A stretch of DNA of 40,873 nucleotides from a virus. Positions 8,554 through 15,437 of the stretch are shown here, piece after piece. The translations under genes and the position numbers were made by a program. Numbering within the stretch: the first letter of the stretch is position 1; each line of letters begins with the position of its first letter. The notes under the pieces were generated by a model. The model did not search any database and was not told where the DNA came from. It saw only the letters and a program-made list of their open reading frames with translations. Where the stretch lies: positions 1 to 40,873 of the IMG/VR virus record IMGVR_UViG_3300028536_000001. The stretch is one strand, 5' to 3'.

Positions 8554-8655
8554 ATATTATTGGTCCTAAAGTACTTAGGTTATTTTAATTTATTTCCGCC
8601 GCGAGGTCCAAGGAACTCCAGCAGGCGTTGACCGCCCGAGGGCCGGTTGAAAAAT

Positions 8656-8731
8656 TGGTAGTTCTGACTGGACTCAAACCAGCATAACATTCTTCGGAGG
8701 AATGTGTCCTTTTCTATTGAACGACAGAACC
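8656..8731 (-). tRNA. tRNA-Arg(CCG)
   Basis: Cloverleaf; loop CT-CCG-AA; CCA. Confidence 0.85.
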
Positions 8732-8735
8732 AAAT

Positions 8736-8810
8736 TGGGAACCGCACTGAGATTCAAACTCAGATACTCTTTGTTAGGACCAAAGGACTTTTTCGTTAAG
8801 TTATGCGGTC
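8736..8810 (-). tRNA. tRNA-Arg(CCT), atypical (G32, C73)
   Basis: Stem CTTTG/CAAAG; loop GT-CCT-AA; CCA. Confidence 0.75.
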
Positions 8811-8814
8811 AAAG

Positions 8815-8890
8815 TGGGGTAGCCATCCGGACTCAAACCGGAATCGTTGAGGTAGAAGCTCAAGGCCCTATTCTATTGGACGATGGCTAC
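8815..8890 (-). tRNA. tRNA-Arg(TCT)
   Basis: Stem TTGAG/CTCAA; loop CT-TCT-AC; CCA. Confidence 0.85.
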
Positions 8891-8895
8891 GAAAG

Positions 8896-8972
8896 TGGTG
8901 GGACGTCTGGAACTCGAATCCAGCTCTGGAGGTTAAAAGCCAACTGCATCTAACCATCAATGCTTACGTCCC
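8896..8972 (-). tRNA. tRNA-Lys(TTT)
   Basis: Loop CT-TTT-AA; two mismatches in the anticodon stem; CCA. Confidence 0.8.
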
Positions 8973-8978
8973 AAAAAC

Positions 8979-9056
8979 TGGGAGAGTTGGGCGACACGCA
9001 GTCGATCCCTATTCTCTTTAGCGTGAATAACTGATTTCAGGATCTTTCCAATCCTC
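8979..9056 (-). ncRNA. Putative 78-nt structured RNA ending in stem+CCA (not a cloverleaf)
   Basis: 5' GAGGATTGG pairs with CCAACTCTC, followed by CCA; inner stems GATCCT/GGGATC and TATTC/GAATA; 5' end coincides with the predicted TSS. Confidence 0.45.
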
Positions 9057-9062
9057 AAATAC

Positions 9063-9091
9063 ATTATACCAAATAGATTGGTGTTTGTCAA
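9063..9091 (-). promoter_or_regulatory. Consensus sigma70-type promoter
   Basis: TTGACA-17 nt-TATAAT. Confidence 0.85.
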
Positions 9092-9101
9092 CAACTATTT
9101 T

Positions 9102-9176
9102 TGGTGCAGCCAGAAAGGATTTAACTTTCGCCAAACAGGGTAAGAGCCTGATATACTGACATTATACGATGGCTGC
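9102..9176 (-). tRNA. tRNA-Lys(CTT)
   Basis: Loop CT-CTT-AC; CCA. Confidence 0.8.
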
Positions 9177-9179
9177 AAG

Positions 9180-9274
9180 TGGGCTAGGCTGAGGGTGTCG
9201 ATCCCTCCCGGTACTCTAATCTGGAGTTTCTCTGCGGTTTATAAGACCGCACTGCACAGCCGGTGCTAACCTAG
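9180..9274 (-). tRNA. tRNA-Ile(TAT)-like with long variable arm
   Basis: Stem TGCGGT/ACCGCA; loop CT-TAT-AA; ~25-nt V region; 5-nt D loop; CCA. Confidence 0.7.
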
Positions 9275-9281
9275 TTAAAAA

Positions 9282-9356
9282 TGGCGCGGGAACTCGGAAC
9301 CGACCCGAGAAGTTTGGTTTTGGAGACCAACAGTTTTCCAGTTAGCTTATTCCCGC
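9282..9356 (-). tRNA. tRNA-Trp(CCA)
   Basis: Stem TTGGT/ACCAA; loop CT-CCA-AA; G73; CCA. Confidence 0.85.
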
Positions 9357-9583
9357 GTAATCTGTAGCTGATTCGAACAATACGAATAAAAGGGTCTTAT
9401 ACCTGTTCCTATCAGTTTACAAGTTGTTTTAGAAACTTCAATATCTTCTCTACGAACAAATTTTCCTTTGATTCGCGTTAAAAGTTTATTGCATGTTTTC
9501 GGGACAGGAACACCATCCAAGTTGAGGATAATGTCGTCGCGCCCGCAAGCGTCACACTCGATATGGTATCTAGTTTCTGTCAT
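9347..9583 (-). CDS. Hypothetical protein within the tRNA array
   Basis: 78-aa ORF filling an inter-tRNA gap; CxxC motif. Confidence 0.5.
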   Translation of the reverse strand: MTETRYHIECDACGRDDIILNLDGVPVPKTCNKLLTRIKGKFVRREDIEVSKTTCKLIGTGIRPFYSYCSNQLQITRE

Positions 9584-9589
9584 TTAAAA

Positions 9590-9675
9590 TGGAGCACCCG
9601 ACAGGACTCAAACCTGTATGTGGAAATTAATCCCTACGTTCGTAGCGTAGTGCCTTTTCGTTAGACTACGGATGC
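9590..9675 (-). tRNA. tRNA-Arg(ACG) with long variable arm
   Basis: Stem CTACG/CGTAG; loop CT-ACG-AA; 16-nt V region (GGA-TTAATT-TCC); CCA. Confidence 0.8.
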
Positions 9676-9684
9676 GTTTTAAAA

Positions 9685-9758
9685 TGGTCGGGATACTCCG
9701 ATTCGCACGGAGGACACATGTGCCCAAGACATGGATGTTGCTTCTACACTATATCCCG
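9685..9758 (-). tRNA. tRNA-Pro(TGG)
   Basis: C1-G72, A73; loop CT-TGG-GC. Confidence 0.85.
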
Positions 9759-9767
9759 TTAAACTTA

Positions 9768-9843
9768 TGGTGCCAACTATCCGTTTTGATCGGATTTCTT
9801 TTCCTCTTCAGGGAAACGTAATAACCCTATCTACGAAGTTGGC
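9768..9843 (-). tRNA. tRNA-Phe(GAA)
   Basis: Stem TTTCC/GGAAA; loop CT-GAA-GA; CCA. Confidence 0.8.
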
Positions 9844-9865
9844 AAATCGTTGATACTAAATAAGT

Positions 9866-9941
9866 TGGTGGAGCCTGTCGGCTTTGCTCCGACCGCCTCT
9901 TCGGTGCAAGCGAAGTGCTCTCCTGAATGAGCTAAGGCCCC
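9866..9941 (-). tRNA. tRNA-Ala(TGC)
   Basis: G3:U70 pair; loop CT-TGC-AC; CCA. Confidence 0.9.
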
Positions 9942-9947
9942 TAAAAT

Positions 9948-10079
9948 TTATGCAAACAAAATTTGTCTTGCTTCTGTCGCGCTGATAATACCCGCATCAA
10001 ACAGATTTCGGACACAAACAGCTAAATCTGCGCCAAACACAATTTTAAGTTGTTTAGCTAACTTATTTGTTAATTCCAT
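9948..10079 (-). CDS. 43-aa hypothetical protein (not in ORF track)
   Basis: AGGAGG RBS, then MELTNKLAKQLKIVFGADLAVCVRNLFDAGIISATEARQILFA*. Confidence 0.6.
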   Translation of the reverse strand: MELTNKLAKQLKIVFGADLAVCVRNLFDAGIISATEARQILFA

Positions 10080-10113
10080 ATTTCCTCCTGTCCATTTTCT
10101 GGACAAAAAAATT

Positions 10114-10192
10114 TGGAGAGGGAGAAACTGAGTCCTCCCCCTCGCACCGTGTCTGAAACGTACGGTGGGACGCCTCGCGGCGCTAAGCCACT
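10114..10192 (-). ncRNA. Putative 79-nt structured RNA ending in stem+TCCA
   Basis: Hairpins CGCC-GCGA-GGCG, CACCGT/ACGGTG and GAGGGGGAG/TTCTCCCTC, then TCCA and a T run; begins at the predicted TSS. Confidence 0.45.
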
Positions 10193-10198
10193 AAATAC

Positions 10199-10227
10199 AT
10201 TGTACTATCATATTGACTGGCTGTCAA
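10199..10227 (-). promoter_or_regulatory. Sigma70-type promoter, twin of 7921-7949
   Basis: TTGACA-17 nt-TACAAT with the same downstream GTATTTAGTG. Confidence 0.75.
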
Positions 10228-10235
10228 GGGTAAAA

Positions 10236-10312
10236 TGGGGTGTACGGGACGAATCGAACGTCCTTAAACAACAGAGTCACAGTCTGAGGCCGCACCAATT
10301 GGCTTCGCACAC
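10236..10312 (-). tRNA. tRNA-His(GTG)
   Basis: Loop CT-GTG-AC; C73; CCA. Confidence 0.8.
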
Positions 10313-10318
10313 GTAAAA

Positions 10319-10393
10319 TGGAGCCTCCACAGAGAGTTGCGCTCTGCTCTATAGTTTACAGGACTATTGCATCGCTGTCAATGCTTTGGAGGC
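10319..10393 (-). tRNA. tRNA-Thr(TGT)
   Basis: Stem ATAGT/ACTAT; loop CC-TGT-AA; CCA. Confidence 0.8.
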
Positions 10394-10395
10394 GG

Positions 10396-10932
10396 TTAAT
10401 CTTGTTGCATCGAAGTATTCTCGAAATACAAATATTTACGCCAAAGTGGATCATCTTCGCCCATCGCCCGGATCACATGACGGCTGGTGTGCATGTTCAC
10501 GGGCTTGTATCTTTTTGAAAGCACCATTCCCGCTTCTTCAGGAGTACGGTTTGCTTTGAACAAGTTACAAGGCTTGCAACACGCGGTTAAGTTGGACCAA
10601 GTTCCGCGTCCGCCCCTAGATTGGGGTTGAATATGGTCTAAAGTAAGATCCGATGACGAAAATCTCTTTACACAATAAGCACAGGTGTATTTATCCCGAA
10701 GGTAAATGTTCTTACGAGTCAAAACTTGTAGTCTATGAGGAATGTATACGTGCCGAAGAAGACGGATTACCGAAGGGACTGGAATATCGGGACGCAGGTA
10801 CTTATTTTTGTGCTCGGTAATCTCAACGGCGTTCTTAACCAGCAACTTGACGGCGTTCTTGACCGTAGTGATTTGGCTAGGCTCATAAGCCACATTAAGG
10901 ACCAAGACCGGCGATGAAATTAAACTTGGCAA
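10396..10932 (-). CDS. HNH endonuclease (McrA/HNH_5-like)
   Basis: VLVLNVAYEP...PSVIRL...TRKNIYLRDKYTCAYC...TLDHIQPQSRGG...WSNLTACCKPCN. Confidence 0.9.
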   Translation of the reverse strand: MPSLISSPVLVLNVAYEPSQITTVKNAVKLLVKNAVEITEHKNKYLRPDIPVPSVIRLLRHVYIPHRLQVLTRKNIYLRDKYTCAYCVKRFSSSDLTLDHIQPQSRGGRGTWSNLTACCKPCNLFKANRTPEEAGMVLSKRYKPVNMHTSRHVIRAMGEDDPLWRKYLYFENTSMQQD

Positions 10933-10979
10933 CGAGCAATATCCTCCTCAAAATACGTGCTCTTAGTGTAACATACTTA

Positions 10980-11054
10980 TGGAGCCAGCAGCCAGGTTTA
11001 AACTGGCGTCTTTTCTTTACGAGAGAAAAATTCTATCAATTGAACTATGCTGAC
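10980..11054 (-). tRNA. tRNA-Thr(CGT)
   Basis: Stem TTTCT/AGAAA; loop CT-CGT-AA; CCA. Confidence 0.85.
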
Positions 11055-11058
11055 GATT

Positions 11059-11445
11059 CTACCACAATCCAGAAAAAGCCCCAACCTTTGCTAGTCGTTT
11101 CATTTCTTTCTGAAAGTCGGGACCGTGATCATGACGGCTTTTACGAAGTTTTAATTTCAAGTGGACAATTTCGTGAAAAAGTGTTAGCAGCACAGTACGC
11201 TTACCAACATCATATAGATTGGTATTAATTCGTATAGTGTGCTTTCTTTCGTACGTTTTTCTGTACGTTCCTTTATCGTTTCCTCGAACTCTCTGAGCGA
11301 GTACACATCTTTCGGGACTATAGTCACCCATAACATTTTCAGGAAGTTCAGAAGACCAAAATACTCTGCAATCTGTCGGAAGAGTATTTCTATAGTATCG
11401 AGAATTGATTACGTCGTAATAATGTTTAAGACTGTATCTAGACAA
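11059..11445 (-). CDS. SprT-like zinc metalloprotease
   Basis: TLFHEIVH...HGPDFQKEMKRL; TTG start after GAGGAGG (the longer ORF-track start lies inside tRNA-Gln). Confidence 0.75.
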   Translation of the reverse strand: MSRYSLKHYYDVINSRYYRNTLPTDCRVFWSSELPENVMGDYSPERCVLAQRVRGNDKGTYRKTYERKHTIRINTNLYDVGKRTVLLTLFHEIVHLKLKLRKSRHDHGPDFQKEMKRLAKVGAFSGLW

Positions 11446-11465
11446 ACGTCCTCCTCGTTTCAACT

Positions 11466-11541
11466 TGGTTCCGGAGGTAGGATTGCAACCCACATTCACT
11501 GGTTCAAAGCCAGATTTCCTAGCATCTTAGAAGACTCCGGA
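11466..11541 (-). tRNA. tRNA-Gln(TTG)
   Basis: U1-A72; loop CT-TTG-AA; CCA. Confidence 0.85.
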
Positions 11542-11546
11542 ATAAA

Positions 11547-11705
11547 CTATTCTTCGTTTTCTAAAGCTCTTTCCAACTCCAAGTCATCCAAGTAGTGACC
11601 GAACTGCTTGATCGCCTCTTCATCAACAACAAAACCTTCTTCGGCCAAGATAGCCTGTAAACGATCATCTTGGAAGTGCGATTTAATGCGGTCGGATGTG
11701 CTCAT
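11547..11705 (-). CDS. Small acidic hypothetical protein
   Basis: MSTSDRIKSHF... with AAAGGA RBS, lying between tRNAs. Confidence 0.6.
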   Translation of the reverse strand: MSTSDRIKSHFQDDRLQAILAEEGFVVDEEAIKQFGHYLDDLELERALENEE

Positions 11706-11723
11706 TGGAAATCCTTTCAGATG

Positions 11724-11800
11724 TGGATGCCTCTCTTGGTCTCGAACCAAGCCTATTCTTCGTTCAGAGCGAAGTGCCATACCAACTAGGCGAAGAGGCA
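11724..11800 (-). tRNA. tRNA-Gln(CTG)
   Basis: Stem CTTCG/CGAAG; loop CT-CTG-AA; CCA. Confidence 0.85.
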
Positions 11801-11809
11801 GTAAAATTT

Positions 11810-11901
11810 TGGCTGTAGGGGTGGGAGTCGAACCCACAGTTGACTACTTGATTCGTCGATTGGTTAACGGCCAATTGCCTTCCCATTCAGCGCACCCTAC
11901 A
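11810..11901 (-). tRNA. tRNA-Asn(GTT) with long variable region
   Basis: U1-A72, G73; stem ATTGG/CCAAT; loop CC-GTT-AA; 21-nt V region. Confidence 0.8.
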
Positions 11902-12417
11902 TCAGTTTCTAATAATCTTGATAATCTCAAGCGCATCAGAATATTTAACCCACTCTCCATCCTCAGAGTGAACATTATATTTATCTAAGAGTTCCTGTTC
12001 CGCTTTTCTTCTATTCAAACAAAACTCGTAGTGTTTTATGTAGAACTTTTTAAACGGATCATACGTTTGGTAAGAGGACAGCCTAGATGCTGTATCTACA
12101 GTCATACCTATTTTAAGATGATCTGGCCAAGCAGGATTAGCTATAAGATAAACCATTCCTTCCTTACAGTTGTTGGTCTTTGCCCCGCGTGACAGTTTCA
12201 ATCTTAAAAGTTCAAGTCCAGCTAGTTTTCTGGCATAATTTCTTTGAAACTTTTTGTTATTGGACTCACCTAAATTTCCGTACACTTCAATGTAGGCTGA
12301 TAACATTTCTTCAGTTATGTCAAATGCCGTACACGTAGGAACCCAACCTGTTCGGGTGAGTATATCAACTGTTCTTTTAATTCTATCAGTTCTTCCAACA
12401 TCTGTTGGATTACTCAT
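11902..12417 (-). CDS. GIY-YIG (T5orf172/MUG113-like) nuclease
   Basis: GMVYLIANPAWPDHLKIGMT...RLSSYQT.DP...AEQ...GEW. Confidence 0.8.
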   Translation of the reverse strand: MSNPTDVGRTDRIKRTVDILTRTGWVPTCTAFDITEEMLSAYIEVYGNLGESNNKKFQRNYARKLAGLELLRLKLSRGAKTNNCKEGMVYLIANPAWPDHLKIGMTVDTASRLSSYQTYDPFKKFYIKHYEFCLNRRKAEQELLDKYNVHSEDGEWVKYSDALEIIKIIRN

Positions 12418-12505
12418 CCTTTATCCTTGAAACATTTATTAAAGTTGATATTTACGTCAATTTCATTCCAAAATAGAACTAAATTGACGTATACATCATT
12501 TAATT

Positions 12506-12581
12506 TGGAACCAGCAACCAGAATTGAACTGGCATTCTCTGTTGGAAAGACAGGAGTCCTCGACCGTTAGACGATGCTGGC
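12506..12581 (-). tRNA. tRNA-Glu(TTC)
   Basis: Loop CT-TTC-CA; Glu-type D arm; CCA. Confidence 0.85.
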
Positions 12582-12585
12582 AAAC

Positions 12586-12762
12586 TTAACTTACAGAAGC
12601 GTGACGACCTGCGACAGCGTAGGCTCTATCCCATCTCGACTCACCAGAAGCATTAAATCGGAGTCCGCAGGAACATGCTACTGAAGCTACATCATCTCCA
12701 ACCCTTGAAAGAGTTATTCTGTGAAACAAGGAACGAACTAAAGTGCGTAAAAATTTTGGCAT
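12586..12762 (-). CDS. 58-aa hypothetical protein (not in ORF track)
   Basis: AAGGA RBS; MPKFLRTLVRSLFHRITL...ACSCG...GRHASVS*; fills the gap between two tRNAs. Confidence 0.5.
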   Translation of the reverse strand: MPKFLRTLVRSLFHRITLSRVGDDVASVACSCGLRFNASGESRWDRAYAVAGRHASVS

Positions 12763-12778
12763 TGTTTTCCTTTTAAAG

Positions 12779-12853
12779 TGGCGATCTCGAAGGGAATCAA
12801 ACCCTTAACTTACACCGTGACAAGGTGGCGCTTTATCGTTAAGCTACGAGACC
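12779..12853 (-). tRNA. tRNA-Asp(GTC)
   Basis: Loop TT-GTC-AC; G73; CCA. Confidence 0.85.
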
Positions 12854-12854
12854 T

Positions 12855-12928
12855 TGGTTGCGTGTCTGGGAGTTGAACCCAGTTTTTGGGATTATGAGCC
12901 CCACGTAGAGCCGTTCTACTACCCCGCA
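12855..12928 (-). tRNA. tRNA-Met(CAT), initiator-like
   Basis: Stem TGGGG/TCCCA; loop CT-CAT-AA; 5' TGCGGGG; CCA. Confidence 0.8.
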
Positions 12929-12933
12929 TTATT

Positions 12934-12962
12934 AGAATAACACAAAACTATTCAGTTGTCAA
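12934..12962 (-). promoter_or_regulatory. Sigma70-type promoter just upstream of tRNA-Met
   Basis: TTGACA-17 nt-TATTCT. Confidence 0.6.
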
Positions 12963-12970
12963 TAAAAATC

Positions 12971-13056
12971 TGGTGAGTGCGCTCAGGATCGAACTGAGTG
13001 TGCTCTAAAGCGCCTGTTCTACAGACAGGTGGACTTGCCTTCAGTCCATCGCACCC
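12971..13056 (-). tRNA. tRNA-Tyr(GTA)
   Basis: Loop CT-GTA-GA; class II V arm; A73; CCA. Confidence 0.85.
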
Positions 13057-13066
13057 GTTTTCTGGA

Positions 13067-13492
13067 CTACTTCTTAGACAGTGTAATTTTTACCCAGTTT
13101 GCAAATTCGTGTTTGGAATAATACGGATGATTGAAGATACATTCCCAACCTCCGCGAGGAATACCATCGGAACAACCTCTGTAAACCCGCCACCGTGATT
13201 CTGCGGTTTTCTTGACCGTACAAAGCCGGGCTATTTTTCCACAGATCTGACAAACTTTGATAGACTTGATATCTTTTTCGGCAATCGAATCTACGTACTG
13301 TCCGATGTGCTTTTGAGGGCAGGCATATCCAAAACTATAGGCTATCACATCTTCTGGCTTGGTGTCCAAATCGGGTTCTGGATCTGGTGCTATAATTTTT
13401 ACGGTTTCAGGATTATCACATGGAATACACGTACCTGGTTTTGGGTATGTATCCAACACGATAACTTCTTCCTTTTTATTTTTCCAAAACAT
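13067..13492 (-). CDS. Hypothetical protein, probably Zn-binding
   Basis: 141-aa ORF; AAGGAG RBS; CxxxH and CxxC motifs. Confidence 0.65.
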   Translation of the reverse strand: MFWKNKKEEVIVLDTYPKPGTCIPCDNPETVKIIAPDPEPDLDTKPEDVIAYSFGYACPQKHIGQYVDSIAEKDIKSIKVCQICGKIARLCTVKKTAESRWRVYRGCSDGIPRGGWECIFNHPYYSKHEFANWVKITLSKK

Positions 13493-13508
13493 AGTTCTCC
13501 TTTAAAAA

Positions 13509-13604
13509 TGGAGGAGAGAGTGGGATTTCAACCCACGGTGCTTGGGTTTAGCAAGACACGACGGTTTTCAGGACCGCTGCAATAAAACGCTCTGCCACCT
13601 CTCC
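13509..13604 (-). tRNA. tRNA-Ser(TGA)
   Basis: Loop CC-TGA-AA; long V arm; CCA. Confidence 0.85.
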
Positions 13605-13605
13605 A

Positions 13606-13691
13606 TGGCCGAGAACGTTGGAGTCGAACCAACTAATCCTTTCGGATTTACAGTTTAGCAAACTGCTGCATTACCGTCCTGCCCGTTCTCG
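13606..13691 (-). tRNA. tRNA-Ser(GCT)
   Basis: Loop TT-GCT-AA; V arm AATCC-GAAA-GGATT; G73. Confidence 0.9.
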
Positions 13692-13698
13692 TAAATTG

Positions 13699-13776
13699 TG
13701 GCACGGATGACTGGACTCAAACCAGTAAACATCTTATTTTGAATAAGATAGGTATTTCAATTCCCACCACATCCGC
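13699..13776 (-). tRNA. tRNA-Leu(CAA) lacking the long variable arm
   Basis: Stem TCTTA/TAAGA; loop TT-CAA-AA; 5-nt V loop; G73. Confidence 0.75.
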
Positions 13777-13777
13777 G

Positions 13778-13966
13778 TTAATCTAATCCAATATACTCCG
13801 ACAAAGCCTCGGCTGCCCAAACGTACGCAACTCTTAGTTTGTGGAATTCCTTATCATTTATTTCCTTGAAGGTTGAGTAAGATCGAAAGGTGTAGTCAAA
13901 ACCTTCCTGTCCTACTCGCTGGCGTACTGGTTCAAACTCATCCTCAAAATCGTCGTCGCCGTACAT
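13778..13966 (-). CDS. Small acidic hypothetical protein
   Basis: AAGGAGG RBS; MYGDDDFEDEFE... Confidence 0.7.
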   Translation of the reverse strand: MYGDDDFEDEFEPVRQRVGQEGFDYTFRSYSTFKEINDKEFHKLRVAYVWAAEALSEYIGLD

Positions 13967-13981
13967 GTTTCCTCCTTGATG

Positions 13982-14069
13982 TGGTACCCGATGAGAGATT
14001 TCAACTCTCAATGACCTTTACGATCGACGCGGCCTAAACGCGTTGTGTCTTGCGTTCCACCAATCGGGC
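13982..14069 (-). tRNA. tRNA-Leu(TAG)
   Basis: Stem ACGCG/CGCGT; loop TT-TAG-GC; V arm; A73. Confidence 0.85.
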
Positions 14070-14540
14070 GTATTTAAACTTCTTACTTCTACTTTTACTC
14101 CTGCAATCTTTACAGTAAGCCTGTATACCATCTCGCCTATTTCCGTTTTTGTGAAATAGACTTTTACAGAGATAATCGGCGCACCCAACACACCATTTTG
14201 TATCTTCTGGCGCATCTAAGTGTCTGGTATTTGGTGGAAGAAACGATTTTGGACGAGGGCCGATTCTCGGTCTACTACACCCCACATTACACCTTAGATG
14301 AGAAAAGGCAATATTATCCAAATCCCAGAATAAATTAGAATCTAGACCAAGCCACGGTTCTTTATGGTCTACACTCAACTCTTCAGGAGTCTCTATTATC
14401 TTCTTACAGCGATAACAAATGTTTTCTTTTAACCTGCAAACAAGAGAAAATAGTATTCTCTTCTTTAACCTACCACTCGCTCGGCCTATGGGCATTCCAA
14501 GTTGATCGGATTTTCTTTCGTTAGATGTATTTATGTACAT
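14034..14540 (-). CDS. HNH endonuclease
   Basis: CYRC...SVDHKEPW...NIAFSHLRCN plus C-terminal CxxC...CxxC; start trimmed to the ATG downstream of tRNA-Cys. Confidence 0.75.
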   Translation of the reverse strand: MYINTSNERKSDQLGMPIGRASGRLKKRILFSLVCRLKENICYRCKKIIETPEELSVDHKEPWLGLDSNLFWDLDNIAFSHLRCNVGCSRPRIGPRPKSFLPPNTRHLDAPEDTKWCVGCADYLCKSLFHKNGNRRDGIQAYCKDCRSKSRSKKFKYARLVERKTQRV

Positions 14541-14547
14541 AGATATT

Positions 14548-14624
14548 TGGAGTCGGCAGAGAGAATCGAACTCTCGCATTTCAGGTTTTGCAGACCTGCG
14601 CTTTACCGTCTTAGCTATGCCGAC
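14548..14624 (-). tRNA. tRNA-Cys(GCA)
   Basis: Loop CT-GCA-AA; U73; CCA. Confidence 0.9.
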
Positions 14625-14629
14625 AAACT

Positions 14630-14712
14630 TGGAGCGGAAGACGAGACTCGAACTCGCATGGCTTGCGCCGTTAGTTTGGAAAACTAATTCCTTACCGTTA
14701 GGATACTTCCGC
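14630..14712 (-). tRNA. tRNA-Gly(TCC) with long variable arm
   Basis: GCG/CGC acceptor top, U73; loop TT-TCC-AA; 13-nt V region (GGC-GCAA-GCC). Confidence 0.85.
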
Positions 14713-14721
14713 ATTAAACTT

Positions 14722-14796
14722 TGGTCCACCCTGCTGGACTCAAACCAACGTATCGCTCTAATCAGGAGCGCGTCCTAGTCGCTGGACGAAGGGTGG
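14722..14796 (-). tRNA. tRNA-Ile(GAT), atypical U37
   Basis: Stem CGCTC/GAGCG; loop CT-GAT-TA; A73. Confidence 0.75.
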
Positions 14797-14797
14797 A

Positions 14798-14872
14798 TGG
14801 AGCTACGAGTCGGAACTGACCCGACAACTATACCTTACCGAGGTATTATGTTTCCCGTTACACTATCATAGC
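14798..14872 (-). tRNA. tRNA-Thr(GGT)
   Basis: Stem ATACC/GGTAT; loop TC-GGT-AA; CCA. Confidence 0.8.
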
Positions 14873-14874
14873 AT

Positions 14875-14950
14875 TGGTACCGGATGCAGGCTTTGCTCCC
14901 GCCACTTCAATCTTGTAAGGATTGCACTCTACTGAATGAGTTAATCCGGC
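14875..14950 (-). tRNA. tRNA-Val(TAC)
   Basis: Stem CAATC/GATTG; loop CT-TAC-AA; A73. Confidence 0.85.
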
Positions 14951-14957
14951 ATAAAAC

Positions 14958-15035
14958 TGGTAGCGACGCCGAGCCTCGAACTCGGAAACATCTCATTTTA
15001 AAGGAGATAGGTATACCGATTCCCTTCACGTCGCC
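14958..15035 (-). tRNA. tRNA-Leu(TAA) lacking the long variable arm
   Basis: Loop TT-TAA-AA; 5-nt V loop; A73; CCA. Confidence 0.75.
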
Positions 15036-15098
15036 AAAACAAAACTGTCCTTATTGTATATAAACCCATTTTTCCAAACTTAGTTGCGATTTGTCAAG

Positions 15099-15437
15099 CT
15101 ATTTCTTTGAATCGGTACTTTTTTCTGTTTTCTGGATAGACCAAGTGTTTGATTGGGCATCGAACTTGTATGTCTCATCCCATCCATTATCCTTCTTGAT
15201 TTGCTCAATTAGGGCTTGGGCTTCGCGGTCAAAGTTGTCGAGCACGGGTTTTACATTCGTGAAGTAGTCTTGCTGAACCTTGATATTAAATTGGTTCTGA
15301 ACGGTGGTGTACTGTGACCTGTTCAGTTGCAGCTTTACCGTGTTGGTAGATTCCTTCGGAACCACCGTATTCGCTGGCTGCGCTGCCTGAGCAAACGCAG
15401 ATGCGGTTAGAAGGGCTAGAGTAAAAAGTGTTTTCAT
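15099..15437 (-). CDS. Putative secreted protein
   Basis: Signal peptide MKTLFTLALLTASAFA-Q. Confidence 0.7.
   Translation of the reverse strand: MKTLFTLALLTASAFAQAAQPANTVVPKESTNTVKLQLNRSQYTTVQNQFNIKVQQDYFTNVKPVLDNFDREAQALIEQIKKDNGWDETYKFDAQSNTWSIQKTEKSTDSKK

Follow-up and report, generated by a model that had tools for sequence, protein, structure and literature searches.

By the textbook rule, a long variable (V) arm is reserved for the tRNAs of Ser, Leu and Tyr (and Sec). Four genes in a tRNA array of about 30 genes, carried by a 106.5-kb soil phage, raise the question of what becomes of a tRNA of another isotype that has such an arm. A first-pass annotation of the window, that is, the whole stretch of 40,873 nucleotides of phage DNA analysed here, had assigned V regions of 13, 16, 21 and 25 nt to tRNAs with Gly(UCC), Arg(ACG), Asn(GUU) and Ile(UAU) anticodons, and ARAGORN calls at the same positions, all on the minus strand, agree. 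The coordinates of the four genes were rechecked against the sequence letters. We favour, with a probability of roughly 0.6, the view that these are working, cognately charged tRNAs, in which a small extra V hairpin sits on a class I body of the matching isotype, and that this is a recurrent design of tRNA arrays.

Four tRNA genes with enlarged variable regions

The array (8656..15035, minus strand) covers all 20 amino acids with its approximately 30 tRNAs, every one of which has an encoded CCA. Among the tRNA genes lie two HNH nuclease genes, a T5orf172/GIY-YIG-type gene directly upstream of the Asn gene and a SprT-like gene. In its density, its interspersed homing endonucleases, small ORFs and promoters, and its spread by horizontal transfer, it resembles the arrays of large virulent phages such as T5 and the long tRNA arrays of bacteria (PMC8421152, PMC4758250). 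Neither of these papers describes V-arm-bearing class I isotypes, and the Asn tRNA of T5 is an ordinary 78-nt gene, against 92 nt here. The complete 106.5-kb genome gave no Pfam match to the aminoacyl-tRNA synthetase families PF00133, PF00152 and PF00587, in line with charging by the enzymes of the host.

The gene for tRNA-Gly(UCC) (14630..14712, minus strand) is 83 nt long including its encoded CCA and scores 59.3 bits against the Rfam tRNA model (RF00005, gathering score 29 bits). Its V region, c-GGC-gcaa-GCC-at (14658-14670), contains the hairpin GGC-GCAA-GCC (14660..14669), and minimum free energy (MFE) folding recovers a cloverleaf with five arms (z = -2.9). Five-arm cloverleaf folds were also obtained for the Ile tRNA and for tRNA-Arg(ACG) (9590..9675, minus strand; 86 nt with encoded CCA, U73; 45.2 bits), in whose V region, GGA-ttaatt-TCC-acat (9618-9633), a 3-bp stem encloses a 6-nt A/U loop that is not of GNRA type. 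The tRNA-Asn(GUU) gene (11810..11901, minus strand; 92 nt, G73) scores 43.2 bits and has C33 in place of U33 in its anticodon loop. Its V region, c-GAC-gaatcaagta-GTC-aact (11838-11858), is poorly paired, with a stem of just 3 bp (GAC/GTC) around a 10-nt loop, and its MFE fold contains no cloverleaf (z = -0.96). In all three genes the Rfam model places the extra bases as an insertion in the V region. ARAGORN, Rfam and MFE folding support genuine inserts that are for the most part paired, although for Asn the pairing is weak.

With the class II tRNAs (Ser, Leu, Tyr, Sec) the four share the additional stem-loop between anticodon arm and T arm, but in anticodon (UCC, ACG, GUU, UAU), discriminator and body they do not match the tRNAs for Ser, Leu or Tyr, and their extra stems are shorter than those of the Ser tRNAs in the same array. 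They are similar in size to the V arm of the phage's own Tyr tRNA (3 bp and a tetraloop). Set against canonical class I tRNA-Gly(UCC), Arg(ACG) and Asn(GUU) as modelled in RF00005, the phage versions have the same anticodons and cognate-type bodies that exceed the gathering score, and the acceptor/discriminator identity bases of Gly and Asn match. It is the V region that departs from class I, being 13-21 nt long with a hairpin (25 nt in Ile) instead of 4-5 nt with no stem.

Recurrence and lability of the extra arm

Pattern scans of viral contigs for long-V tRNAs produced 57 loci with 23 distinct tRNAs for Gly(UCC), and at least 118 matches each for Asn and Arg; ARAGORN identified at least 37 distinct long-V Asn and at least 12 distinct long-V Arg(ACG) tRNAs in viral contigs. 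In arrays unselected for isotype, long V regions are found in 23/32 Ile(UAU), 12/68 Asn, 3/83 Gly(UCC) and 1/38 Arg(ACG) tRNAs, and in none of those for Ala, Asp or Val. The isotypes enriched for arms are Ile(UAU), Asn, Thr(UGU), Lys(UUU) and Cys, along with some Arg and Gly, and many arrays hold long-V and short-V versions side by side. The V-arm design is therefore not peculiar to the soil phage but turns up in many tRNA clusters of phages and mobile elements. The annotation had allowed that such isotypes might prove common and already characterised in phage arrays. Common they are, but our literature search found no paper characterising V-arm-bearing class I isotypes there.

The arms are structured. 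Hairpins are commoner in V regions than in shuffled versions of them, and 39 of the 47 V-arm tetraloops, taken over seven isotypes, are of GNRA type. Elsewhere in viral contigs the arm of Gly, Arg and Asn tRNAs is usually a 3-5 bp hairpin with a GNRA cap. The V-arm covariation that the annotation had proposed to look for in related arrays is seen both in the Ile V stem (see below) and in the Gly GNRA hairpin: other viral Gly(UCC) tRNAs have the compensatory stems GAC/GTC, AAC/GTT, TCC/GGA and TCA/TGA, and 95% of cells are paired in the Gly alignment, compared with 55% after shuffling, in a set preselected for a GNRA loop and at least two flanking pairs.

Comparison with the closest relatives shows how readily the arm changes. 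The closest relative, L299, is syntenic with the window and 82% identical to it over the Gln and Asn genes. Its Asn gene is near-identical, with the same V stem and a loop 5 nt shorter, its Arg tRNA keeps a long V arm with a different stem, and its Ile arm is retained as GCTC-cagatta-GAGC, whereas its Gly(UCC) tRNA has a normal short V loop. The Gly arm is likewise absent from two further near relatives, L318 and L313, while a hairpin identical to the window's GGC-GCAA-GCC occurs in L025. In L233 the Arg tRNA has a long V arm ending in the same ACAU tail as that of the window. No consensus V stem was predicted in the alignment of Arg tRNAs from relatives, because their V arms do not align in register. 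The Asn tRNA has been recovered with identical sequence in a second soil study. The suggestion of a systematic re-shaping of the four tRNAs finds no support in this comparison, which instead presents them as separate recurrent lineages. The Gly, Arg and Asn arms are short hairpins that are labile in evolution; most relatives have 3-5 bp beneath a GNRA or GAAUA cap.

The Ile(UAU) tRNA and its family

The 95-nt tRNA-Ile(UAU) gene (9180..9274, minus strand) was delineated by ARAGORN, MFE folding and alignment with 23 viral relatives. Its acceptor stem is 7 bp long and is joined by a 1-nt linker to a D arm of 4 bp and a 5-nt loop; the anticodon stem has 6 bp and the T stem 5 bp, the latter closing a non-canonical T loop, ATCGACA. 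Within the 25-nt V region (9208-9232) lies the hairpin ACTC-CAGATTA-GAGT (9213..9227). There is no match to the Rfam tRNA model (RF00005) even at E <= 10, and the best Rfam match is to tRNA-Sec, at 24.5 bits, below that model's threshold of 47. The body is idiosyncratic, its best match after masking being another Ile(UAU).

We define a V-arm Ile(UAU) family by two features, the UAU anticodon and a V hairpin whose 3-5 bp stem covaries and whose 7-nt loop reads Y-A-G-A-U-U-A. Across 24 sequences the loop never varies at its G and A residues and has U in at least 90%; the inner three pairs of the stem are formed in 23-24 of the 24, with 3, 14 and 7 two-sided changes. The window's gene shares the anticodon and V hairpin of the family, but has C73 where all 23 aligned viral relatives have A73. 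Its exact hairpin core is common to 35 viral contigs, and an unannotated Ile(UAU) gene in L233 has an identical V hairpin and 90% identity to window positions 9205-9267 (63 nt). A cultured representative is provided by Acinetobacter phage vB_AbaS_qsb1, in which an 88-nt gene annotated as tRNA-Ile has the V hairpin CGA-cagataa-TCG. The family is also present in tRNA arrays of bacterial genome assemblies, and the V-loop pattern yields 55 bacterial matches, mostly in Acidobacteriota MAGs. Judged from these alignments, the Ile arm is an old, conserved element, and its near-invariant loop, CAGAUUA, would imply a sequence-specific partner.

The nearest described designs are the allo-tRNA(UAU) of Acidobacteria (Mukai et al. 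2016, PMC5389517) and the nev-tRNAs of nematodes (Hamashima et al. 2012, PMC3333845). Allo-tRNA(UAU) resembles the window's Ile tRNA, alone among the four, in its long V arm, its lengthened (6-bp) anticodon stem and its compact, Sec-like D arm, as well as in the UAU anticodon; the Acidobacteriota MAGs and the tRNA-Sec match extend the parallel. The two differ, in a comparison made with the published description, in that the 12-bp branch of allo-tRNA is divided 8/4 or 9/3 between acceptor and T stems, against 7/5 in the window's gene and its relatives, and in that allo-tRNA has the Ser-identity bases G73 or U73, against A73 in the Ile family and C73 in the window's copy. The nematode nev-tRNAs, Gly(CCC) and Ile(UAU), likewise combine a V arm with Gly and Ile(UAU) anticodons. 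They are, however, eukaryotic, with Leu-type bodies and charged with Leu, whereas the Gly and Ile(UAU) tRNAs here belong to phage and mobile-element arrays and the bodies of the Gly, Arg and Asn tRNAs resemble those of their own isotypes.

Identity, codon meaning and the role of the arm

The bodies were compared with V region and anticodon masked, counting the 25 nearest tRNAs. Gly accounts for 16/25 of the neighbours of the Gly body and Arg for 20/25 of those of the Arg body; the best match of the Asn body is an Asn tRNA, as are 9/25 of its neighbours. In E. coli, identity depends on G1-C72, C2-G71, G3-C70, U73, C35 and C36 for Gly, on GUU and G73 for Asn, on C35 and A20 for Arg and on A73 for Ile. 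Scored by these rules, from which the host's may differ, the Gly and Asn elements are present, the former including the complete acceptor set (G1-C72, C2-G71, G3-C70, U73), and Ile has C73. The Arg tRNA, by the same rules and with the same proviso, has C35, an A at the likely position 20 in its D loop AACGAAA, and U73. The U73 of Gly and G73 of Asn noted in the first-pass annotation are thus correct, and cognate identity appears to be kept, given the Gly acceptor set, the Asn anticodon and discriminator, and masked Gly, Arg and Asn bodies nearest to their own isotypes. In the phage DNA polymerase, moreover, GGA or GGG encodes 11/11 conserved Gly columns, AAC or AAU 6/7 conserved Asn columns and CGN 7/7 conserved Arg columns.

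These results bear on the proposal that the extra arm leads to charging with Ser or Leu, so that sense codons would be recoded during infection. A long V arm is indeed a main identity element for SerRS (PMC7609411), nev-tRNAs with Gly or Ile anticodons carry Leu (PMC3333845), and since G73 and G2-C71 of the Asn tRNA fit part of the Ser identity set, some serylation of it is possible on sequence alone. Yet the cognate-type bodies, the discriminators of Gly and Asn and the polymerase's use of GGR, AAY and CGN at invariant Gly, Asn and Arg sites together make recoding very improbable; in addition, the discriminator of the Ile family is near-invariant A73, not G73, and the array already encodes ordinary Ser and Leu tRNAs.

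Another suggestion was that the arm shields the phage tRNAs, its altered shape escaping host tRNA-cleaving defence nucleases or tRNA-modifying toxins while cognate identity is retained. The concentration of arms in certain isotypes and not in others, and their presence in phage and array tRNAs far more often than the textbook rule permits, would suit such a role. So would the known attack of anticodon nucleases on several arm-enriched isotypes: on Lys by PrrC and PARIS, on Asn by colicin E5 and on Arg by colicin D. These enzymes, however, work at the anticodon loop, distant from the V region, arms are gained and lost between close relatives, many arrays retain a short-V version as well, and our analysis tied no nuclease or toxin to the four tRNAs; we regard shielding as unlikely, if worth keeping in view. 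Somewhat more doubtful still is that some of the genes, mainly Ile(UAU) and Asn, are decaying or non-translational, in the manner of those allo-tRNA(UAU) species that showed no activity in suppression assays; Mukai et al. report six suppressors derived from allo-tRNA(UAU) as inactive in E. coli (PMC5389517). The window's Ile(UAU) copy may be weakened, given C73, the odd T loop and the sub-threshold Rfam score, and C33, the weak V stem and the non-cloverleaf MFE fold count against Asn. But the Ile T-loop type is also found in L216, L274 and L233, and so is a trait of the lineage and not random decay; the anticodon loop, every stem and the V hairpin are intact; the gene is the only AUA reader found in the array, AUA making up 11/678 codons of the phage polymerase; and the Asn sequence recurs unchanged in the second soil study. 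Finally, the insert might act at the DNA level by breaking a homing endonuclease site within the tRNA gene, the hairpin being simply the form in which an insert is tolerated. The HNH and GIY-YIG-type genes of the array, the V-loop indels between close relatives and the reported preference of T4 SegB for cutting within tRNA genes (PMC8421152) accord with this. It nevertheless seems a slender prospect, as it leaves the invariant Ile V loop and the GNRA bias unexplained and no cleavage site is known for the array's nucleases.

We therefore return to working tRNAs with a cognate body and an added hairpin. The V region is the only known site at which an L-shaped tRNA accommodates an extra helix, as in Ser, Leu and Tyr tRNAs, and for this reason host GlyRS, ArgRS, AsnRS and IleRS would be expected to charge the four phage tRNAs, which would then read GGR, CGN, AAY and AUA with their standard meaning. 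The arm of the Gly, Arg and Asn tRNAs is probably an extra that is tolerated or that stabilises the fold. The Ile(UAU) design is shared between phage arrays and the arrays of bacterial genome assemblies. As far as can be judged from the genes themselves, the extra arms most likely leave the genetic code of the phage unchanged.

Long variable regions on four class I tRNAs

A long variable (V) arm is, by the textbook rule, found solely in tRNAs for Ser, Leu, Tyr and Sec. The first-pass annotation had nevertheless ascribed one to four other tRNAs of the window, and ARAGORN together with a check of the sequence bears this out in every case. All four lie on the minus strand: tRNA-Gly(UCC) at 14630-14712 has a V region of 13 nt (c-GGC-gcaa-GCC-at), tRNA-Arg(ACG) at 9590-9675 one of 16 nt (GGA-ttaatt-TCC-acat), tRNA-Asn(GUU) at 11810-11901 one of 21 nt (c-GAC-gaatcaagta-GTC-aact) and tRNA-Ile(UAU) at 9180-9274 one of 25 nt that includes the hairpin ACTC-cagatta-GAGT. 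The observation is correct and is not due to chance.

The Rfam tRNA model scores the Gly, Arg and Asn genes at 59, 45 and 43 bits, handling the extra bases as an insertion. The Ile(UAU) gene falls below the tRNA threshold and its top model is tRNA-Sec, where it reaches 24.5 bits of the 47 required. This fits its unusual body, in which a linker of 1 nt joins the acceptor and D stems, a D stem of 4 bp carries a 5-nt loop and the anticodon stem has 6 bp; the gene also has C73 and a T loop of ATCGACA. When folded by free energy only, the Gly, Arg and Ile genes form a five-arm cloverleaf and the Asn gene, whose anticodon loop has C33, does not. The possibility that the inserts are introns was rejected, since they form stable, covarying hairpins; bacteria are not known to splice small introns of this kind.

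A soil metagenome assembly yielded the virus record, complete at 106.5 kb and with direct terminal repeats, whose first 40.9 kb make up the window. Identical phage fragments from within 8600-15100, including the Asn tRNA and its insert, occur in contigs of two other soil studies, and no sequence variants of the four tRNAs were seen among the soil metagenome DNA contigs compared. The array (8656-15035, minus strand) contains 27 genes called by ARAGORN, each with an encoded CCA at its 3′ end, and three found by Rfam only; its tRNAs span all 20 amino acids. The three that ARAGORN missed, also on the minus strand, have anticodon loops that read by eye as Lys(CUU) (9105-9176), Gln(UUG) (11469-11541) and Lys(UUU) (8899-8972), the anticodon stem of the Lys(UUU) gene being poorly paired. 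The sole CAU-anticodon tRNA found in the array (12855-12928, minus strand) has two acceptor-stem mismatches, and the base of its anticodon stem consists of three G-C pairs, as in initiator tRNAs; neither an elongator Met nor an Ile2(CAU) gene was recognised in addition. Protein genes on the same strand are interspersed: a T5orf172/GIY-YIG-type gene directly upstream of the Asn tRNA (11902-12417), two HNH nuclease genes (10396-10932 and 14034-14501) and a SprT-like gene (11059-11499). The layout resembles that of the tRNA region of phage T5. T5 was considered as a possible source of the V-arm Asn tRNA and rejected, its own being an ordinary gene of 78 nt.

Recurrence and hairpin form in viral arrays

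IMG/VR viral contigs were scanned with isotype-specific patterns that required a long gap between anticodon loop and T loop. The Gly(UCC) pattern found 57 loci, containing 23 distinct long-V Gly(UCC) tRNAs by ARAGORN, and the Asn and Arg patterns gave at least 118 matches each. Many of the Arg matches are probably due to Arg(ACG)-like genes lacking a D arm and having a V region of 22 nt, as at L229:781-870, L264:2847-2935, L292:3741-3830 and L258:3610-3700. ARAGORN calls none of these four, which match the window's Arg(ACG) at about 94% identity in the T arm and the 3′ strand of the acceptor stem.

Run over 293 loci, ARAGORN returned 2774 tRNAs. Frequencies were taken solely from arrays unselected for the isotype in question, counting each distinct sequence once and a V region of at least 9 nt as long. 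By this measure long V regions are most frequent in Ile(UAU) (23/32), followed by Thr(UGU) (16/83), Asn(GUU) (12/68), Lys(UUU) (10/85) and Cys (9/86); they are found in 3/83 Gly(UCC), 1/38 Arg(ACG) and 1/84 Ile(GAU) tRNAs and in no Ala, Asp or Val tRNA. The reverse anomaly, a short V loop, affects Leu: in the viral arrays sampled around half of its tRNAs are short-V, in the bacterial-genome arrays most are, and in the window both Leu(CAA) (13699-13776, minus strand) and Leu(UAA) (14958-15035, minus strand) have V loops of 4-5 nt. The four tRNAs are cases of a recurrent but under-described design of phage arrays, which for Ile(UAU) extends to arrays in bacterial assemblies. The proposal of systematic reshaping or recoding is thus right only in part: the arms are real, but they belong to a design seen across phage arrays, and decoding is most likely normal.

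In Gly, Arg, Asn, Thr, Lys and Cys tRNAs, stems of at least 3 bp are commoner in the long V regions than in shuffled versions of them. GNRA sequences make up 39 of 47 V-arm tetraloops over seven isotypes including Ile(UAU), against a chance expectation of about 3%, and GAAUA is the second commonest cap. The window's Gly hairpin, GGC-GCAA-GCC, has the standard form and recurs identically in L025, while further viral Gly(UCC) tRNAs surround the GNRA loop with GAC/GTC, AAC/GTT, TCC/GGA or TCA/TGA. Across the GNRA set 95% of stem cells are paired compared with 55% after shuffling, a figure somewhat inflated by choosing the set for GNRA and at least two flanking pairs. A search for a common fold of the long-V Arg(ACG) tRNAs with RNAalifold gave no V stem, because the V arms are out of register in the alignment. 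There is also a second long-V Gly(UCC) family, with a conserved, weakly paired V region of 15 nt, a-GGCGAATAG-(G/T)TT-(C/A)C (loci L001, L010-L013, L017, L019-L021, L027, L029, L036, L038, L040, L041, L044, L052 and L055). Its contigs are mostly of 150-480 kb, and some carry an ordinary Gly(UCC) as well.

Relatives of the phage show how the arms differ in persistence. A 47-kb viral contig, L299, has a syntenic array, with 82% identity to the window across the Gln(CUG) and Asn pair. Its Asn tRNA shares the window's acceptor stem and V stem (GAC/GTC), the V loop being GAATA as against GAATCAAGTA in the window, an indel of 5 nt; the 10-nt form of the loop, as GAATTAAGTA, is also present in the unrelated Asn tRNA of L041. 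The same contig encodes an Arg(ACG) with a V arm of different stem (GAGA-gaaa-TCTC), an Ile(UAU) with GCTC-cagatta-GAGC and A73, and an ordinary 75-nt Gly(UCC). Two more contigs, L318 and L313, have a long-V Asn tRNA together with short-V Arg and Gly, and L233 contains an unannotated Ile(UAU), 90% identical to window 9205-9267 with an identical V hairpin, along with a long-V Arg(ACG) that shares the ACAU tail of its counterpart in the window. These patterns indicate that the Asn and Ile arms are conserved, the Arg arm variable and the Gly arm sporadic. No GenBank phage matched the array by megablast, the matches of the individual Gly and Asn tRNAs in distant blastn were no larger than a T arm, and the array-flanking proteins had no relatives in the viral contigs. 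The DNA polymerase has homologues of up to 64% identity, among them P0003, whose 94.9-kb contig begins with the polymerase gene, and its relatives L398, L385 and L405, among the viral contigs scanned, contain no tRNAs.

The Ile(UAU) family

The window's Ile(UAU) was aligned with 23 distinct long-V Ile(UAU) tRNAs from arrays unselected for Ile. Outside the T arm and CCA end, the anticodon UAU, A37 and the G and A of the V loop are the only invariant positions; a U follows this GA in at least 90% of the 24 sequences and the loop consensus is C-A-G-A-U-U-A. The V stem covaries across these arrays, a check that the first-pass annotation had put forward: its inner three pairs form in 23-24 of the 24 sequences, with two-sided changes numbering 3, 14 and 7, comparable to the anticodon and T stems of the same alignment. 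The contrast between an invariant loop and a stem that covaries freely suggests that the arm has a specific partner. Pairing of the loop's GAUU with a T-loop AAUC was tried as an explanation and rejected, since the V loop is the same in members with T loops ATCGACA, ATCGTTA and GGCAGCA. A sub-family (L083, L192, L206, L216, L221, L244 and L274) has the compact D arm and the anticodon stem of 6 bp in common with the window's gene; in L216 and L274 the ATCG-type T loop is shared as well.

A pattern scan found the exact core of the window's V hairpin in 35 viral contigs. In a collection of species genomes the V-loop motif is present in 55 contigs, mostly Acidobacteriota MAGs, the others including Rhodobacteraceae, Nostoc and Acidithiobacillus. 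Nearly all of these bacterial loci have 7-38 tRNAs within 8 kb and so are tRNA arrays, and members with a readable 3′ end have A73. The upper extreme is an Acidithiobacillus sp. chromosome (L352), with 38 tRNAs in its 8-kb locus, while in Nostoc (L351 and L375) the V-arm Ile(UAU) is a lone tRNA call. Long tRNA arrays have been published for Acidithiobacillus and Nostoc, and the publications consulted make no mention of the V-arm Ile(UAU). Two Acidobacteriota MAG contigs have the arm GCGG-cagatta-CCGC on tRNAs with anticodons GAU (L346) and UGU (L366), apparently Ile(UAU) scaffolds whose anticodon has switched. The family also has a member in the cultured Acinetobacter phage vB_AbaS_qsb1, where the gene is annotated as a plain tRNA-Ile.

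Among the non-canonical tRNAs already described are tRNA-Sec, allo-tRNAs with 8/4 or 9/3 acceptor branches, known from phages too, and nematode nev-tRNAs (PMC7609411, PMC5389517, PMC3333845); V-arm-bearing class I isotypes are unmentioned in publications on bacterial and phage tRNA arrays. The nev-tRNAs are Ser- or Leu-type bodies with swapped anticodons, unlike the window's four tRNAs. Allo-tRNA(UAU) is described as including five-stem-junction variants and as being inactive in assays of Ser suppression (PMC5389517). Compared by description only, acidobacterial members of the Ile family may overlap it; on the same basis, points of difference are the 7/5 acceptor branch of the window's Ile tRNA and its relatives and the A73 of the family.

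Identity, decoding and significance

The other half of the first-pass proposal, that tRNAs charged with Ser or Leu recode sense codons, finds little favour. Every acceptor element of the E. coli-type Gly set is present in the window's Gly tRNA, as is U73, and the Asn tRNA combines the GUU anticodon with G73. When the bodies, with anticodon masked and V region removed, were matched against some 3300 array tRNAs, Gly accounted for 16 of the closest 25 to the Gly body and Arg for 20 of the closest 25 to the Arg body. The Asn body had Asn as its top match and for 9 of its nearest 25, and the idiosyncratic Ile body was closest to another Ile(UAU). As judged from these comparisons, none of the four is a Ser- or Leu-type body that has acquired another anticodon. 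Host enzymes must charge them, since none of the aminoacyl-tRNA synthetase families PF00133, PF00152 and PF00587 has a match anywhere in the complete genome of the phage. Codon use was followed in the phage DNA polymerase, aligned with 47 homologues, at columns conserved in at least 80%: GGA/GGG falls on Gly in 11/11 cases, AAC/AAU on Asn in 6/7 and CGU/CGC/CGA on Arg in 7/7, with AUA once on Ile and once on Leu. The phage genes thus follow the standard code, and Ser or Leu inserted at those codons would harm the phage's own essential polymerase.

The four tRNAs most likely decode normally. The reading we favour, at a probability of roughly 0.6, is that they are cognate, working tRNAs bearing a V hairpin at the one site where the tRNA fold takes an extra helix. 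The arms possibly serve to evade host nucleases, and the window's Ile and Asn copies may be partly decayed, to which C73 in the former and C33 in the latter would point. In the Gly, Arg and Asn tRNAs the hairpin is short and evolutionarily labile, and its usual cap elsewhere is GNRA or GAAUA, which suggests an addition that is tolerated or stabilises the fold rather than an identity switch.

The Ile(UAU) arm invites a more specific idea. Bacterial IleRS normally reads G34 or lysidine-34, and a tRNA with the anticodon UAU has neither. Its V loop is of anticodon-loop size and contains GAU, the standard Ile anticodon; conceivably C-A-G-A-U-U-A acts as a built-in surrogate identity signal, which would let the tRNA be recognised by IleRS or a U34-modifying enzyme in any host that the phage or mobile element enters. 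This would explain why the arm accompanies UAU (23/32) rather than GAU (1/84), why the V-loop G-A(-U) is as invariant as the anticodon and why the V stem covaries freely. We consider it unlikely because the V arm lies far from the anticodon-binding site of IleRS. Were it true, Ile(UAU) would be a portable AUA decoder independent of TilS.

The rule on long V arms is embedded in textbooks, in models of tRNA identity and partly in annotation tools, and the sampled viral arrays break it both ways, with mini V arms on class I tRNAs and none on about half of the Leu tRNAs. Phage tRNA annotation is affected, several V-arm genes being missed or mis-scored, and the finding bears on the ways in which phage tRNAs might remain functional or elude control by the host. 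For tRNA engineering, the V region appears to be a place where hairpins with a GNRA cap can be inserted and are naturally tolerated, Gly, Arg and Asn tRNAs included. Experiments would be best spent on the Ile(UAU) arm and its conserved loop and, because a cultured Acinetobacter phage has a member, the family offers a testable system for lysidine-free AUA decoding.
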